A DNA stretch of 24,000 nucleotides from Massilia eurypsychrophila. GTDB lineage: Bacteria; Pseudomonadota; Gammaproteobacteria; Burkholderiales; Burkholderiaceae_D. The DNA lies in contig NZ_PDOC01000003.1 in NCBI RefSeq assembly GCF_002760655.1, positions 200,840 through 224,839 of the forward strand, given 5' to 3'. The notes beneath the pieces were generated by a model that did not search any database, was not told the DNA's origin, and saw only the letters and a list, made by a program, of their open reading frames with translations. How positions within the stretch are numbered: position 1 is the stretch's first letter; each line of letters opens with the position of its first letter. The position numbers and the translations under genes were made by a program. Of this stretch, positions 7,831-19,295 are shown piece by piece.

Positions 7831-12721
<4,891 letters not shown>

Positions 12722-12735
<14 letters not shown>

Positions 12736-14740
12736 TATCCTCGTTTTTTGGGAGTGGAAAAGGTGGCCGGATGGTGCTTCCGGCTCGTGCGATAGGGGTG
12801 TTCTGTAGTGATGCGAACAGCAATGCGGACATCGCCTGCGCCGGCTCCGGCTCGCCCAGCAGCGCGCCCTGGAACTGATCGCAGCCGGCCGCGGCGAGCA
12901 CCTCGAGCTGCGCTTCGGTGTCGACGCCGAGCGCGCGCACCGACAGGCCGAGCGCGCGCGCCAGGTGGATGATCGCCGCGACCATGTCGGCGCCGCCATC
13001 GGCGCCGATGTCGCGCACGAAAGCGCCATCGATCTTGAGGGCGTCGAAAGGCAGGTCGCGCAAGATGGTCAGGGACGCGCCGGCGCTGCCGAAATCGTCG
13101 ACCGCCAGGCGCACGCCGGCCGCGCGCACCGCGTCGAGCGCCGGCTTGACGTCGCCGGCGCCGACCAGCAGGCGTTCGGCAATCTCAAGTTCGAGCAGTC
13201 CAGCATCGATGCGGCATGTGGCCAGGTGCGCGGCGACCCGTTCGGGCAAGTTCGAGTGAATATGCATGGACCCCAGGTTGACCGACATGACCAGCGCCGG
13301 CAGCCCCGCCTTGTGCCATAGCGCGGCCTGGGCGCAGGCCGCGCCGATGGTCCAGTCGCCGACCTCGTCGAGCAGCTTGCGGTCGGTCACCCGGTGCAGG
13401 AACTGCGGCGCGGCCAGCAGGCCCTCGCGCGGATGGCGCCAGTACAGCAGCGCCTCGACGCCGGACAGCGCGCGGGTGCGCACGTCGGCGTGCGACTGGT
13501 ACTGCAGCGCCAGTTCACCGTTGTCGAGCGCCTGCCGCAGCTCGGCCGCCCAGCGCGCGTGTTCGACTTCGCGCGCGTTGAGCTCCTCGCGGAAGTATTC
13601 GATGCTGCCGCGGCGGTGCTGCTTGGCGTGGTACATGGCCGTGTTTGCATTGCGCAGCACGATGGCGGCGCTGGCGCCGTCCTGCGGATACAGGCCGATG
13701 CCGATCGACGACGAGGTGAAGATATGCTGGCCGGCGATCTCGAACGGCTGCGCGTTGGCCTGCTCGATCTTGCGCGCCACCAGGGCCGCGTTGGCGGAGG
13801 CGCCGGCGCCCTCGAGCAGCACGACGAATTCGTCGCCGCCGGGCCGCGCCGCCACGTCAGACACCCGCACTGCGGCCTGCAGGCGCCCGGCGAACAGGCG
13901 CAGCAGCGCGTCGCCGGCTTCGTGGCCGAGCAGGTCGTTGATGCGCTTGAAGCGGTCGAGGTCGAGGAACAGCACGGCGAACTCGCTGTGATGGCGCTCG
14001 GCGTAGGCGACGGCGTGTTCGAGCTGCTGGATCAGCGCGCGGCGGTTGAGCAGGCCGGTGAGGGCGTCGCGGATCGACAGCTCGTGGGCGCGCGTTTCGG
14101 CCAGCTTGCGCTCGGCCACCTCGAGCTCGAGTTCGGCGTTGATGCGTTCGAGGTCCTGCAGGCGCTGCACCCGCAGGTCCTGGTACAGCGCCGACAGTTC
14201 TTCGGTCTTTGCGACCAGCTCGAGGTTGTTGCGGGTCAGGGCGACGAACACGGCGACCTTGGTTTGCAGGATCTGCGGGATCACCGGGGTAAACAAGTAG
14301 TCGACTGCGCCTTTCTGGTAAGCCTGCAGGCGGTGCATTTCGTCGGCGTAGTGGGCGGTGATGAAGATGATCGGCACGGCCGCCGAGCGCGGATGCGAGT
14401 GGATCGCGTCGGCGGTTTCAAAACCGTCCATGCCCGGCATGTTCACGTCGAGCAGAATGACGGCGAATTCGTGCATCAGCACCTGGCGCAGCGCCTCGTG
14501 GCCTGAAGTGGCGGTGATGAGCTCGTACTGGCCGTCGGGCGCCGGTTGATTCAGCAGGCTCTCTAGCGCGAACAGGCTGGCCGGATCATCGTTGACTAGT
14601 AGGACTTTAGGGATCTGCACGTCGGGACAGGTCGGTTGGGGAAATCGTGTGGCGTTAATCGTTATATCGCGGACGACAGAAAAATAATCTTGCTGCCCGT
14701 TAGGGTAAGCATTATATTGTCGTTCGGAAACTAAGTGCAA
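12722..14740 (-). CDS. Response regulator with REC, coiled coil, GGDEF and EAL domains
   Basis: REC (KVLLVNDD...[14 protein letters not shown]...[10 protein letters not shown]). GGDEF with RVSD I-site five residues upstream ([18 protein letters not shown]). EAL domain ([41 protein letters not shown]). The track start is a TTG at 14740 inside AT-rich DNA; the in-frame GTG at 14620 (VQIPKVLLV) is an equally plausible start. Neither has a clear SD. Confidence 0.88.
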
Positions 14741-15055
14741 TTCTTATGCTAACAAAATAGCAACCCGGGAGCAAAGTTGGGGAAGGTTATCCGAAAAAAA
14801 CTTTCCCCGGCGCACGGCAGAAACGCGCCCGCCGTCAATTTTTGTGGCATTTAGCGCACAGTCAGACGACCTACCAATTGTCTCATTTTCGAGGCAACCC
14901 ATGGTAGTTACCGGCGCGATTCCTGCTACTTGGAAAATGGCAAAAAAATAATTTTTCGTTGAAGCATTTGTCGATTGAGTTTTGGTAATTAGTCAACTAC
15001 GATCACGTATTGATTCAAATTTGCGATGTCGCAGTGAGCGGGCGGGAGCAGCGAA

Positions 15056-15793
15056 ATGATTGAGTTAAGTCAGTTGATGAGGTTGGTCGATGCAACTTCC
15101 GAAGTGGCCTGGAGCGGTGCGCTTTTCGATATCGCGCATCAAATGGGCTTTGGCGGTGTCATGTACGCCGCATTGTTGTCAAAGCACGCGAACCTCGAGC
15201 ATCCATTTCTGTATAGCAATTATCCGAAAGCTTGGCGCGATCACTATGATGCGGCCAAGCTGCACAGCGTCGACCCGACCATTCGCCATTGCATGAACAG
15301 CGTGCTGCCGCTGATCTGGGAGCCCGACACCTTCCGCCACGCTGACAATCATAATTTGTACGATGAGTCGCGCCAGTTCGTCAAACGGTCGGGCATCACG
15401 TTCCCGATGCACGGTTGCAATGGCGAGATCGGCATGATCAGCTTTGCCACCGAGGAAATGGATGCGGAAGAGTTCAGCGCCCACCTGACCCACTACATGG
15501 CCGATTTGTCGCTGGTGCGCGATTACGCGTTCGACTCGTCCCTCAAGTTCATCAAGGCGCGCAGCCACGCTGAACCGGTGCCGCACCTGACCAAGCGCGA
15601 ACTGGAAGTGATTAAATGGGTGATGGCCGGCAAATCCTCGTGGGAAATCTCACGCATTACCGACTGTGCCGAAGCGACCATCAATTTTCACATTTCGAAT
15701 ATCCGCCAGAAGTTCAACGTCAATACCCGTCAGCAGGCGCTCGTCAAGGCGATCGCCCTCGGCATCATCACTCCAGAAGATCCACATCGCTGA
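15056..15793 (+). CDS. LuxR-family AHL-binding transcriptional regulator, LasR-like
   Basis: The autoinducer-binding domain carries SNYPKAWRDHYDAAKLHSVDPTIRHCMNSVLPLIWEP. I recall this as close to LasR [37 protein letters not shown]. The C-terminal LuxR HTH is LTKRELEVIKWVMAGKSSWEISRITDCAEATINFHISNIRQKFNV. GGGAG SD lies 9 nt before ATG 15056. Confidence 0.9.
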   Translation: MIELSQLMRLVDATSEVAWSGALFDIAHQMGFGGVMYAALLSKHANLEHPFLYSNYPKAWRDHYDAAKLHSVDPTIRHCMNSVLPLIWEPDTFRHADNHNLYDESRQFVKRSGITFPMHGCNGEIGMISFATEEMDAEEFSAHLTHYMADLSLVRDYAFDSSLKFIKARSHAEPVPHLTKRELEVIKWVMAGKSSWEISRITDCAEATINFHISNIRQKFNVNTRQQALVKAIALGIITPEDPHR

Positions 15794-16049
15794 CCTTGCC
15801 GTTGACGTACAGCTTGACCAGCAGCGCGACCGGAGGGGGAACCCCGAGGCCGGTCTCGAAGCGGCTGCCGCTCGACTGGGTCACGCCGAAGCGGGCCCAG
15901 AATGTGGCCTGGCTCTCGCGCTTGCTGATGCGAAATTGCCGCAATCCCATCTGACCCGGCCCGCGCAGCGGTTGGTTGGCCGCATCGTTGGCGGCGAACG
16001 ACACCGCGTCGCTGACAGCCGGCGCCTGCAGATTAAAGTCCTGGTCCAT
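15768..16049 (-). CDS. rsaL: RsaL-like small HTH repressor, convergent with the LuxR-family gene
   Basis: 93 aa with a strong GGAGGGG SD before ATG 16049. The core KRESQATFWARFGVTQSSGSRFETGLGVPPPVALLVKLYVNGKVSDVDL matches my recollection of the RsaL signature (RESQ.TFW.RFG..QS.GSRFE.G..P.P.ALL..Y..G). The position and orientation relative to luxR are canonical for rsaL. Its 3' end overlaps the luxR 3' end by 26 nt. Confidence 0.7.
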   Translation of the reverse strand: MDQDFNLQAPAVSDAVSFAANDAANQPLRGPGQMGLRQFRISKRESQATFWARFGVTQSSGSRFETGLGVPPPVALLVKLYVNGKVSDVDLLE

Positions 16050-16104
16050 GTCATCCCCTCCGCAAATCGATGGGTCCAGTATTCCACCTCGCGCCTTGCT
16101 TTTG

Positions 16105-16124
16105 AGCTATCACATCTACTAGTT
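16105..16124. promoter_or_regulatory. lux/las-box-like 20-mer (CT-N12-AG) in the rsaL-divergent promoter
   Basis: AGCTATCACATCTACTAGTT has the NNCT-N12-AGNN frame. By my count it shares 16/20 positions with the P. aeruginosa lasI box as I remember it (ATCTATCTCATTTGCTAGTT). It lies 56 nt upstream of the rsaL-like ATG. Confidence 0.45.
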
Positions 16125-16138
16125 ATGCAGATCACATA
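16124..16138. promoter_or_regulatory. RsaL-operator-like palindrome TATG-N7-CATA
   Basis: TATGCAGATCACATA directly abuts the lux-box-like element. It has the same half-sites and spacing as the RsaL site I recall in the lasI promoter (TATGAAATTTGCATA). The arms are short, so chance occurrence is not excluded. Confidence 0.4.
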
Positions 16139-16319
16139 AGTAAAGCTCCTGCGGTCATCGGCCGTCTTTTTCGCGCTGTTGATCTTGATTGTCGGACGCT
16201 ACGGGGTTTTCCGTCGGAAAAAATTGCCGCACGAGATGTGTTTGCCGTCGTCATTAATAGTATATTGACAGCACGGCGGCGCTGCAGTGCCAGTCCGCTT
16301 CGGGACAAGGTTTTCGACG

Positions 16320-19295
16320 ATGACGCAAGCGATTTCGGGCAGCATGGGCAGCACGGTGACCGGCGGCGGACCGGCGTGGCTGCGGTTGCGAGCGGCCGGC
16401 CTGATTTTCTCGGCGCTGGTCGGTGCCGGGCTGTATACAGTCGCTGCCAACACCGTCGAGGGCGATGCGCGCCAGCGTTTCAACGGCATCGCGCGCATCG
16501 CCCAGTCGGCCCTGGCGGCGCGCCTGGCCACCTTCAATGACCTGGTGCGCGGCACCACCGCCTTGTTCGAGGCGTCCGACGATCCGGTCACGCGGCTGCA
16601 GTTTCACCGCTACGTCGCCGCGCTCGACGTGCCGCGCAATTTCCCCGAGGTCGACCTGCTGTCGTACGCCGCCAGCGTCGACGACGCCGGGCGCGACGCC
16701 TTCGTCGCCCGGGTGCGGGCCGACCGCAGCCTGGCGCCGGGCGGCTATCCGGCGTTCGACATCCTGCCTGCCGGCCGGCGCGAGCGCTACGAAGTGCTCA
16801 CCTTCGTCGAGCCGGCGCGCCACTTCAGCCGCTACTTCGGCGCCGACATCGCGCAAAACCCGGCGATCGCCGAGGCGCTGGCGCAGTCGCGCGACACCGG
16901 GCAGCTCAGTTCCGGCGTGCCGATCATGTTCGACGCGCCGTCGCCGCACATCGGCCTTGGCATCGGCCGGCCGGTGTACCGCAAAGGCGTGCCGCTGACC
17001 GATGCCGCGGCCAGGCGCGCCGCCTTCCTCGGCATGGTCGGCGTCGAGTTCAGCGTGCCAGGCCTGGCGCAGGGCGTACTGGGGCAGGTCGGCATGCCCG
17101 GCCTGCGCGTGGCGCTGTACGCCGCCGGCAGCGCCGCGGCGGACCAGCGCGCGCTGGCAATTGGCCGCGGCGACCGGCTGCTGTTCGGCGCAGGTCCGCT
17201 GCGCGACGCCAGTTTCGAGGCGGTGCTGCCGGTCGACTTCAACGGCAGTCTGTGGAAGGCGCGCTTCACGCTGCCGCGCTCCGACCTGTACAGCCAGTTC
17301 GACCGCGCCTTTCCCTTTCTCGCGCTGGCCATCGGGGTGGTGGTGGGCCTGCTGGTGTATGCATTCTTCTTCACCCTGTTCTGGTCGCGTCGGGTGGCGA
17401 TCGCCCAGCGGCTGCTGCTCGACACGGTGCTCGACAGCGTCGAGGCGCATGTCTACATGAAGGATCGCGAGCGGCGCTTCACCTACATCAACGCGCGCAC
17501 CGCCGAAGCGATGGGGAAAGCGCCGCAGGAGGTGATCGGCAAGTTCGATCGCGACGTGCTGCCGGCGGCGCTGGCCGACGCCTACTGGGAGCAGGACCGC
17601 AGCGTGTTCGACAACGGCGTATCCAGCGCCGGGCAGCACCAGTTCACCCGGCTCGATGGCCAGGTGCGCCAGTTCTGGACTGTGAAAGTGCCGGTGATGG
17701 AAGCGGGCGAAGTGGCCGCGGTGATCGGCCTGTCGACCGACGTCACCGAGCTGCATGAACTGAAGGCGCAGGCCGATGCCGCCAGCCTGGCCAAGAGTAA
17801 CTTCCTGTCGAACATGAGCCATGAGATCCGCACGCCGATGAACAGCATCATCGGCATGACGCACCTGGCGCTCAAGTCGGCCGCCACGCCGAAGCAGCGC
17901 GACTACCTCGAAAAGATCTACCACTCCAGCCAGCACCTGCTCGGCATCATCAACGACATCCTCGATTTTTCCAAGATCGAAGCCGGCAAGCTGGATCTGG
18001 AAGTGATCGACTTCAGCGTCGCCACGCTGATGGAAAACATTGCGCACCAGCTGGGCGAAGCGGCCAGCTGCCGCCGCCTGGCGCTTGAATTCGAGCTGGC
18101 GCCCGGCCTGCCGCGCCAACTGCGCGGCGACCCGCTGCGGCTCGAGCAGGTGCTGCTCAACTTTACCGGCAACGCCATCAAGTTCTCGGAGGATGGCGTG
18201 GTGCGCATCCACGCCGTCGCGCTCGAGGACACCGAGCACGATGCGCTGGTGCGCTTCGAGGTGCGCGACAACGGCATCGGCATGACCGGCGCCGAAGTGG
18301 GCGAGTTGTTCAAGTCGTTCCACCAGGCCGACCCGTCGACCACCCGCAAGTACGGCGGCACCGGGCTGGGACTGGTGATCAGCAAGCAGCTGGTCGAACT
18401 GATGGGCGGCAGCGTCGGCGTCGACAGCGCGCCCGGCGTCGGCAGCACCTTCTGGTTCACCGCGCGCCTTGGCAAGGGCGTCAGGTTCATGCGCGCCGGG
18501 CCGGCGCCGGCGCCGCGCGAAGTGCTCGACCAGATCGCCGGCGCGGCCATCCTGCTGGTCGAGGACAACGTCTTCAGCCAGCAGGTCGGCCAGGAGCTGC
18601 TGGAAGAAGCCAGCGCCACCGTCGTCGTCGCCTGCAACGGCAAGGAAGCGGTCGACCTGATGCTGCGGCGCTGCTTCGACTGCGTGCTGATGGACCTGCA
18701 GATGCCGGTGATGGACGGCTTCGAGACGACCCGCATGATCCGCTCCGATCCGCGCCTGCGCGAGGCGGTGGTGATCGCCCTGACGGCCAACGCCGGCCGC
18801 GACGACCGGGCGCGGGCGCTGGCGGCCGGCATGGACGAATTTGTCAGCAAGCCGACTTCGCCGAACCAGCTGTTCGAGGTGATCGCCCGCTGCCTGCGCG
18901 CGCACGCTGCGCCGGCCGCCGCGCCCCTTGCGTGCGAGGCGGCGCCGCCGCTGTTCGACATGGCGGCGCTGGCGCTGACCTTCGGCGCCAACCCGCAGAA
19001 GATGCGCAAGTACGCCTTCATGTTCCTCGATTCTGCCGGCGACGGCCTGGCCGTCGTCGGCGAGGCGCTGGCGCGCGCCGACATCGAGCGCGCCGCCGAT
19101 ACCGGGCACCGGATGAAATCGGCCGCGCGCGCGGTCGGCGCGATGGAGTTTGCCCAGCTGTGCCAGCAGCTCGAACAGCTGCGCATCGGCGGCTCGGTGG
19201 CCGAAGCGAGTCTGTTGCTGGGGCGCATGGTGGCACTGCGCGCGCTGCTCGCCGAGCACATGGCCAGCGAACTGGCCGAACCGGCGTCCGGATGA
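16320..19295 (+). CDS. Unorthodox hybrid sensor kinase: TM, periplasmic CHASE, TM, PAS, HisKA, HATPase_c, REC, Hpt
   Basis: CHASE-like periplasmic region (VTRLQFHRYVAALDV...ERYEVLTFVEPARHF...GADIAQNPAIAEALAQSRDTGQ). TM segment FPFLALAIGVVVGLLVYAFFFTLFW. PAS (VEAHVYMKDRERRFTYINARTAEAMG). H-box SNFLSNMSHEIRTPMNS. G2 box GGTGLGLVISKQLVELMGG. REC (ILLVEDN...VLMDLQMPVMDGF). Hpt (GHRMKSAARAVGA). The start is uncertain: GTG 16287, ATG 16320 or ATG 16344. Confidence 0.9.
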   Translation: MTQAISGSMGSTVTGGGPAWLRLRAAGLIFSALVGAGLYTVAANTVEGDARQRFNGIARIAQSALAARLATFNDLVRGTTALFEASDDPVTRLQFHRYVAALDVPRNFPEVDLLSYAASVDDAGRDAFVARVRADRSLAPGGYPAFDILPAGRRERYEVLTFVEPARHFSRYFGADIAQNPAIAEALAQSRDTGQLSSGVPIMFDAPSPHIGLGIGRPVYRKGVPLTDAAARRAAFLGMVGVEFSVPGLAQGVLGQVGMPGLRVALYAAGSAAADQRALAIGRGDRLLFGAGPLRDASFEAVLPVDFNGSLWKARFTLPRSDLYSQFDRAFPFLALAIGVVVGLLVYAFFFTLFWSRRVAIAQRLLLDTVLDSVEAHVYMKDRERRFTYINARTAEAMGKAPQEVIGKFDRDVLPAALADAYWEQDRSVFDNGVSSAGQHQFTRLDGQVRQFWTVKVPVMEAGEVAAVIGLSTDVTELHELKAQADAASLAKSNFLSNMSHEIRTPMNSIIGMTHLALKSAATPKQRDYLEKIYHSSQHLLGIINDILDFSKIEAGKLDLEVIDFSVATLMENIAHQLGEAASCRRLALEFELAPGLPRQLRGDPLRLEQVLLNFTGNAIKFSEDGVVRIHAVALEDTEHDALVRFEVRDNGIGMTGAEVGELFKSFHQADPSTTRKYGGTGLGLVISKQLVELMGGSVGVDSAPGVGSTFWFTARLGKGVRFMRAGPAPAPREVLDQIAGAAILLVEDNVFSQQVGQELLEEASATVVVACNGKEAVDLMLRRCFDCVLMDLQMPVMDGFETTRMIRSDPRLREAVVIALTANAGRDDRARALAAGMDEFVSKPTSPNQLFEVIARCLRAHAAPAAAPLACEAAPPLFDMAALALTFGANPQKMRKYAFMFLDSAGDGLAVVGEALARADIERAADTGHRMKSAARAVGAMEFAQLCQQLEQLRIGGSVAEASLLLGRMVALRALLAEHMASELAEPASG

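Follow-up and report, generated by a model that had tools for sequence, protein, structure and literature searches.

A luxR-rsaL pair without luxI at a native quorum-sensing locus of Massilia eurypsychrophila

Results

The subject of this report is a luxR-rsaL gene pair of Massilia eurypsychrophila, which lies in a 24,000-nucleotide (nt) stretch of contig NZ_PDOC01000003.1 (positions 200,840 to 224,839 of the forward strand; this whole stretch is called the window, and all coordinates below are its own unless another locus is named). The luxR gene encodes a LasR-like N-acyl-homoserine lactone (AHL) receptor and rsaL encodes a small repressor; the luxI gene for an AHL synthase, which completes the locus in relatives, is missing. 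The pair and the two genes that enclose it are as follows.

15056..15793, + strand: luxR, LasR-like AHL receptor of 245 amino acids (aa), with an Autoind_bind domain and a GerE helix-turn-helix (HTH) (Pfam; matches to LasR structures)
15768..16049, - strand: rsaL, tetrahelical HTH repressor of the RsaL family, 93 aa (PF22495; structure 5J2Y)
12722..14622, - strand: left flank, a Response_reg+GGDEF+EAL gene (Pfam), outside the luxR-rsaL cassette and forming its conserved left boundary
16320..19295, + strand: right flank, a hybrid histidine kinase with CHASE-PAS-HisKA-HATPase-receiver-Hpt architecture (Pfam)

The luxR and rsaL genes are convergent and share 26 nt at the luxR 3′ end, an overlap that is the usual trait of loci of the luxR-rsaL-luxI (R-L-I) type (PMC3386692). 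The hybrid kinase adjoins rsaL, in the position that luxI takes in relatives. Its start is the ATG whose equivalent is used in the gene calls of three related loci (L001, L003 and L023), and the start of the left-flank gene was likewise set, at GTG 14622, according to gene calls in relatives.

The LuxR protein matches Autoind_bind (PF03472, E=1.1e-33) and GerE (PF00196, E=1.5e-19), both over their gathering scores, and full-length LasR structures match it colinearly (E=6e-55), with an alignment that is free of gaps over residues 9-190. An initial annotation of this DNA had called the protein LasR-like, as these matches bear out, and had placed the LasR ligand contacts Y56, W60, D73, S129, Y64, P74 and W88 at identical numbering; the alignment confirms every one of them, and R61, T75 and G126 are also the same residues at the same numbers. 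LasR Y93 is replaced by F in the window protein and in all Massilia proteins compared, and the polar AHL contacts are invariant across the Massilia LuxR proteins compared. From these residues we infer a receptor with an intact AHL pocket, which is predicted to bind an AHL.

The small ORF convergent with luxR had been put forward as an RsaL-family protein, and it is one: it matches PF22495 ('RsaL-like HTH') with E=5.9e-21 and 73.9 bits, against a cut-off of 27, and the Pseudomonas aeruginosa RsaL structure 5J2Y over residues 37-91 (E=1.1e-14). The P. aeruginosa RsaL contact residues R20, Q27, G35, Q38, S42, R43 and E45 are identical here, and S37 is changed to T. Seven contacts (R20, Q27, G35, S37, Q38, S42 and R43) are proven to be essential for DNA binding in P. 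aeruginosa (PMC5314801), and six of these seven are identical in the window protein.

The slot for luxI is empty, as the initial annotation had it. A relative's LuxI found no tblastn match in the 24-kb window, Pfam scans of the other large ORFs of the window showed no Autoind_synth (PF00765) or acyltransferase domain, and no luxI lies within about 15 kb upstream or 8 kb downstream of luxR. Metagenome assemblies made independently from three samples (L001-L005) have exactly the same rsaL-to-kinase junction, so the absence of luxI is no assembly artefact.

The relatives that still carry luxI at this site, whose existence the initial annotation had raised, are at hand: 24 related loci have luxR, rsaL and luxI at the same chromosomal position. 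In Massilia sp. R2A-15 the order is RecB-RecC-kinase-LuxI-RsaL-LuxR-GGDEF/EAL-HAMP kinase-CheR, and the window has only a 270-nt spacer where that strain has luxI; the same-site trio, with the GGDEF-EAL gene on one side and the kinase and recC genes on the other, is also found in strain TWR1-2-2, in Telluria, and in several metagenome-assembled genomes (MAGs) and metagenome contigs. Since the relatives have luxI at the same site, the window represents a native R-L-I locus minus luxI and not an inserted islet. The R-L-I trio occurs in Methylophilaceae and Undibacterium as well. A census by operator pattern recovered 13 further luxI+ metagenome loci, plus 3 chance matches; as all 13 quorum-sensing loci were luxI+, the collection evidently lacks the samples that hold luxI-less alleles.

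The luxI-less form occurs in five lineages, namely M. eurypsychrophila itself, two close relatives from metagenomes and two lineages represented by MAGs. Their LuxR proteins are 78-100% identical to that of the window (L023, 97%; L024, 89%; L025/L026, a Massilia MAG, 79%; L009, a Burkholderiales MAG, 78%) and are monophyletic with 99% bootstrap. Five substitutions are fixed in this LuxR clade and absent from luxI+ loci; two of them, V76I and L127M, fall at LasR pocket positions.

Alignment with the luxI+ loci delimits the segment that has gone, which leaves two features between rsaL and the kinase.

16139..16217, no strand: deletion scar, in place of about 0.75-0.8 kb of the relatives (alignments)
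16218..16267, + strand: conserved block upstream of the kinase, AAAAAATTGCC...GATGTGTTTGCC...GTCATTAATAGTATATTG, in luxI+ and luxI- loci (alignment)

In luxI+ loci an RsaL-type operator is followed, in order, by a GATTCTG motif, the perfect palindrome ATGCACGTTGCAT, a ribosome-binding site (RBS), luxI and GC-rich hairpins. The deletion removed the palindrome (the second at these loci), the luxI RBS, luxI itself (195 codons) and the hairpins 3′ of it. All five luxI-less loci share the left edge of the deletion, diverging directly after the GATTCTG-like motif, and homology returns some 100 nt short of the kinase ATG, with a block common to luxI+ and luxI- loci (16218-16267) that is presumably the kinase's own promoter or operator. 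A weak terminator-like hairpin in the scar (16151-16165) is within chance expectation. A luxI remnant was looked for in the 77-nt scar (16139-16215) by local alignment to the rsaL-to-kinase regions of six luxI+ loci, and the scores were no better than those of shuffles; given these scores, no significance attaches to a MAFFT alignment in which the scar seemed to match the 3′ end of luxI.

The palindrome between the lux box and the luxI RBS is of note in its own right. It is a perfect 13-bp palindrome, ATGC(A/G)CG(T/C)TGCAT, in all luxI+ relatives (about 7100-7115 in L011, with equivalents in L006, L010, L012, L013 and L036-L049), and constitutes a second ATG-N7-CAT, RsaL-box-like site, which is exactly what the deletion took away. 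We know of no such second site in P. aeruginosa.

The regulatory elements that remain around the pair are these.

16105..16124, no strand: lux/las-type box AGCTATCACATCTACTAGTT, identical at 16 of 20 positions to lasO ATCTATCTCATTTGCTAGTT
16124..16138, no strand: RsaL-box-like palindrome TATGCAGATCACATA (TATG-N7-CATA), abutting the lux box and conserved across loci
16078..16083, - strand: candidate rsaL -10 hexamer AATACT, in the block GCAGTATT that is invariant in 11 loci
14623..15055, no strand: AT-rich spacer upstream of luxR, 46% G+C (composition, multi-locus alignment)

Conservation extends over the first 95 nt or so upstream of rsaL in luxI+ and luxI- loci alike. The lux box, which is conserved in all loci of both kinds and whose core occurs once in the window against 0.06 matches expected, is presumed to be the LuxR operator of a former bidirectional rsaL-luxI promoter. 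It lies 21 nt from the candidate rsaL -10 hexamer, and this spacing would centre the box near -43, as in class-II geometry. The RsaL box fits the published RsaL consensus TATGnAAnTTnCATA (PMC5314801) and again has a single match in the window, against 0.04 expected. Of the layout typical of the RsaL family, the convergence with luxR, the overlap and the TATG-N7-CATA operator are all present, and the luxI partner is found only in the orthologous loci. A pattern scan of the 24 kb gave no second lux box or RsaL box, and no other local target can be named.

In the spacer upstream of luxR, the block GAAAAAAACTTTCCCCGGCGCACGG (14793-14817) is conserved across luxI+ and luxI- Massilia loci and is possibly a site for a regulator of luxR; a candidate weak promoter, TTGAGT-17-TACGAT (14975-15003), agrees with the consensus at 8 of 12 positions and falls under the scan threshold. 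The rest of this spacer is fast-evolving, with 80% identity even to L023, whose LuxR is so close to that of the window. An Rfam scan of 14500-16400 for structured RNA gave only two sub-threshold chance matches.

The initial annotation had described an AT-richer segment at this locus from hand counts, of about 30% G+C in 14741-15055 and 50% in luxR. The dip is real but those figures are too low: G+C is 46% in 14741-15055 (single 60-nt lines range over 33-60%), 55% in luxR (0.72 at third codon positions, GC3) and 54% over 14630-16320, against a mean of 67.7% (standard deviation 2.9, minimum 61%) in 738-nt windows outside the segment; rsaL, at 65%, is not atypical. The further suggestion, that some 1.7 kb here is foreign or under different constraints, holds to the extent that the segment has a history different from that of its flanks, but a foreign islet it is not. 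We consider it barely credible that the segment was recently gained from outside the genus: its G+C of 0.54, against 0.68 in the flanks, and the sharp breaks in identity to the nearest genome at 14636 and about 16316 could be taken in that sense, but orthologous cassettes with the same low G+C stand at the same site across many Massilia and Telluria genomes (indeed in every relative examined), the closest homologues of both LuxR and RsaL are all from Massilia, and no tRNA genes, mobility genes or bounding repeats were found flanking the segment. Reduced G+C of luxR (0.54-0.63) and of the spacers is common to all orthologous Massilia cassettes, and is therefore an old property of the cassette and no sign of recent import.

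The luxR gene also stands apart in its rate of synonymous divergence (dS), which is 2-3 times that of rsaL and the kinase (0.20 vs 0.07-0.08 in comparison with L023, and 0.84 vs 0.38-0.41 with L024), and in its GC3 (0.72 vs 0.83-0.90). This may be due to weaker constraint on codon usage, or to a different mutational or recombinational history.

The limits that the initial annotation had drawn around the segment (14630-16320) nearly coincide with those of the stretch in which similarity to the nearest relative breaks down (14636 to about 16316). Compared with Massilia sp. TWR1-2-2, which is luxI+ and the nearest genome, the flanks have 93-98% nucleotide identity over 5 kb on each side, and the cassette has 40-84%; identity falls at 14636, from 1.00 to 0.43, and is regained only from about 16316. 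As far as 14635 the nucleotide sequence has an identity of 1.00 to L011, and at the protein level the left-flank GGDEF-EAL protein is 91% identical to that of L011 (95% to that of L023) and the hybrid kinase 92.6%. In a tree of RecC, the luxI+ TWR1-2-2 groups with the window and L023 (92% bootstrap), and its kinase and GGDEF-EAL protein are 91-93% identical to those of the window, compared with only about 84% for the luxI- locus L024.

The LuxR tree and the flank tree thus disagree. Among the luxI-less loci, cassette divergence follows flank divergence, which speaks once more against a recent foreign gain and favours one old loss of luxI with later replacement by luxI+ alleles in some lineages (the closest LuxR to that of L011 is L010's, and to that of L012, L006's); the alternative history is that the luxI-less cassette spread between lineages. 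In either history, the cassette recombines as a unit. Both types of cassette occur together: sample 3300064183 holds the luxI-less L025 and the luxI+ L031/L034, and the Joint Genome Institute (JGI) sister samples 3300060281-3300060289 hold a mixture of luxI-less and luxI+ Massilia cassettes, so that potential producers and non-producers share habitats.

Within the luxI-less clade, where dS reaches about 1, the ratio of nonsynonymous to synonymous rates (dN/dS) is 0.06-0.20 for luxR as a whole, 0.06-0.24 for its ligand-binding domain, 0.05 or less for its DNA-binding domain and 0.10-0.37 for rsaL (the L009 comparison was left out for the kinase). These ranges are indistinguishable from those of luxI+ loci. 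The low dN/dS, together with the invariant polar contacts, indicates that both genes are under purifying selection without an adjacent synthase.

Against this background we judge it very improbable that loss of signalling has left luxR and rsaL as functionless genes in decay. There are signs of decay: luxI has been lost, two of the lineages have an RsaL box with a degenerate right half, and the window shows a decayed -10 element in the luxI promoter. Both ORFs, however, are intact in all five lineages at a dS of about 0.5-1.3, with ratios (0.06-0.37) like those of luxI+ loci; identity in the DNA-binding domain is 96-100%, and neither the lux box nor the block upstream of rsaL varies.

The remaining genes of the window are a glycerol-3-phosphate-oxidase-like FAD enzyme, a YceI-like protein, an M1 peptidase, a glutathione S-transferase (GST), CheR, a 1732-aa HAMP-repeat kinase, RecC and RecB, in addition to the RR-GGDEF-EAL protein (RR, response regulator) and the CHASE-PAS hybrid kinase already described. 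Three observations on these neighbours deserve record. The HAMP-repeat hybrid histidine kinase (7831-13029, - strand) has 90-98% nucleotide identity to its Massilia orthologues, especially over 9056-12456, and its neighbours in those genomes are only 73-85% identical; its C-terminal part has 96-98% aa identity even to R2A-15, and it contains many near-identical HAMP units of about 92 aa. Either unusually strong constraint or recombinational homogenisation would account for this. The orthologue of the CHASE-PAS kinase is about 90 aa shorter in some relatives (L006 6340-9057, L030 1338-4046), without a Pfam CHASE match, its N-terminus being still 54% identical over 123 aa to that of the window kinase; the sensor domain of this quorum-sensing-adjacent kinase is evolving quickly. 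Finally, L025, L009, L027 and L028, among which are both luxI+ and luxI- loci, lack the RR-GGDEF-EAL gene at this site left of luxR and have only short unannotated ORFs in its place; the left side of the cassette is thus also a variable spot.

Discussion

We propose, as the probable reading of these data, that the window holds a native Massilia R-L-I locus of the LasR/RsaL/LasI type from which luxI was cleanly deleted, leaving a working luxR-rsaL module that eavesdrops on others. That several lineages keep the two-gene remnant intact suggests that it still listens to the signals of neighbours.

The deletion would have taken some 0.75-0.8 kb, including luxI, its proximal operator, RBS and terminator, most likely once, in an ancestor of the LuxR clade. 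The receptor would then depend on AHL from other cells, for which co-occurring luxI+ Massilia are the obvious source, and on binding it would occupy the las-type box at 16105-16124, where it could activate rsaL from a class-II promoter and presumably act on other targets in the genome too. RsaL, in turn, would bind the TATG-N7-CATA site at 16124-16138 and damp its own LuxR-driven expression, and may repress further genes as it does in P. aeruginosa. Such a receptor would eavesdrop and carry its own negative feedback, which amounts to an incoherent feed-forward loop. On this reading, cassettes are swapped as units by homologous recombination between Massilia lineages, and such exchange explains why the history of the cassette differs from that of its flanks.

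Several points weigh against this proposal. The degenerate right half of the RsaL box (AATA or GATA) belongs to the L025/L009 subclade, so autoregulation by RsaL may not be universal. The promoter assignments are at the level of consensus and were missed by an automatic promoter/terminator scan, whose output did not exceed chance and left out the conserved promoter-like blocks. That luxI was lost only once is concluded from the LuxR tree and a single breakpoint in common; between the two luxI-less subclades the scars cannot be aligned, and a tree of RsaL only did not resolve the luxI-less clade, the protein being short. To these must be added that Massilia is listed among the genera with rsaM-linked luxI/luxR loci (PMC10710839).

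This last point bears on a different explanation, to which we give a smaller though appreciable share of belief: that LuxR is no true solo and responds to an endogenous AHL, much as QscR does to the LasI product in P. aeruginosa, with the synthase encoded at another place in the genome, by a cognate luxI that has moved or by a second system such as one of rsaM type. Only 24 kb of the genome were inspected, and unlinked cognate pairs do exist, though they are rare (PMC10134790). A relocated cognate gene, however, might be expected among the closest relatives of LuxI, and none of the best 120 (all at least 70% identical) is named M. eurypsychrophila; these 120 include several named Massilia isolates, and the RsaL of M. 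eurypsychrophila (100% identical) is in the same NCBI database. The best 120 bear only on a gene of the cognate type, as a distant paralogue would not show among them.

A third possibility is that the locus has been rewired, such that the former luxI promoter now reads into the CHASE-PAS kinase and exogenous AHL controls a two-component pathway with RsaL as its brake. The kinase start codon is indeed found about 180-200 nt downstream of the lux and RsaL boxes, on the same strand, with only the weak, chance-level terminator-like hairpin in between, and the kinase is a conserved neighbour in nearly all loci. We nevertheless think this improbable: the kinase's own upstream block is equally conserved in luxI+ and luxI- loci; the luxI -10 motif, GATTCT in luxI+ loci and in L025/L009, has decayed to GCTCCT in the window and L023; and the scars of the two luxI-less subclades show no conservation of sequence.

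The eavesdropping module that we favour can be set beside several known systems. Its nearest counterparts are LasR-RsaL-LasI of P. aeruginosa, PpuR/RsaL/PpuI and BraR/RsaL/BraI (the 'L1' R-L-I topology), with which it shares a LasR-colinear receptor with identical AHL contacts, a convergent rsaL overlapping the luxR 3′ end, a las-type operator (16/20 to lasO) with an adjacent TATG-N7-CATA site, and the essential RsaL DNA contacts; its same-site relatives are, moreover, full R-L-I loci. Unlike those systems, it lacks luxI and the proximal operator, its RsaL box and lux box abut, with 1 nt in common, and are not 7 nt apart, its RsaL has an N-terminus longer by 20 residues (93 aa vs 80 aa), and its host is an oxalobacteraceal betaproteobacterium. 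It resembles the AHL-responsive LuxR solos QscR, SdiA, PpoR and CepR2 in having an intact AHL pocket and no adjacent synthase, and in the expectation that it senses signals from other systems or species. Those solos, however, are without a dedicated RsaL partner and are not visibly derived from a syntenic R-L-I locus, whereas for the window pair an origin by deletion of luxI can be read directly from the relatives. The rsaM-luxR solos (topology type 6, PMC10710839) offer a parallel in that a dedicated negative regulator is kept beside LuxR without luxI, but RsaM (DUF4902) and RsaL have neither sequence nor fold in common, the genes are divergent and not convergent-overlapping, and other genera are concerned.

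Replacement of pherotypes or alleles at quorum-sensing loci is seen in Bacillus comQXP and in the Staphylococcus agr groups. The Massilia cassette is like these in being far more divergent than its flanks, with phylogenies that disagree, and in that the ligand-binding part changes fastest (52-71% identity in the ligand-binding domain here vs 82-96% in the DNA-binding domain). It is unlike them in that one of the segregating cassette types is without a signal synthase.

The R-L-I topology, LuxR solos and rsaM genes beside LuxR solos are already known (PMC10710839). We found no description in the searchable literature of a luxR-rsaL pair conserved without luxI, nor any paper on quorum sensing in M. 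eurypsychrophila. The view taken in the initial annotation, that an RsaL kept without its synthase is unusual, is therefore fair as regards the combination, but the arrangement is less of a paradox than it was made to seem, since RsaL of P. aeruginosa is a global regulator of hundreds of genes beyond lasI (PMC5314801).

LuxR solos are common, yet one can seldom trace where they came from or what became of their accessory regulators; in the present case the ancestry is plain. The locus is also a natural test of the role of RsaL when there is no synthase to restrain, that is, of whether it is a global or feed-forward regulator or a mere homeostat. The sharp mosaic of cassette and flanks indicates that quorum-sensing alleles in Massilia are swapped as units, and cold-environment Massilia communities provide a natural system in which signal-negative, signal-responsive strains live beside producers. 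We would add, tentatively, as a possibility that we hold to be on the doubtful side, that luxI+ and luxI- cassettes are a long-lived, recombining polymorphism of producers and eavesdroppers among co-occurring Massilia; in the eavesdroppers RsaL would no longer be a brake for signal homeostasis and would serve as the feed-forward arm that shapes the output, and the receptor pocket has possibly been retuned (V76I, L127M). If this were true, being signal-negative and signal-responsive would be an evolutionarily stable social strategy in these bacteria, and not a transient cheater mutation.

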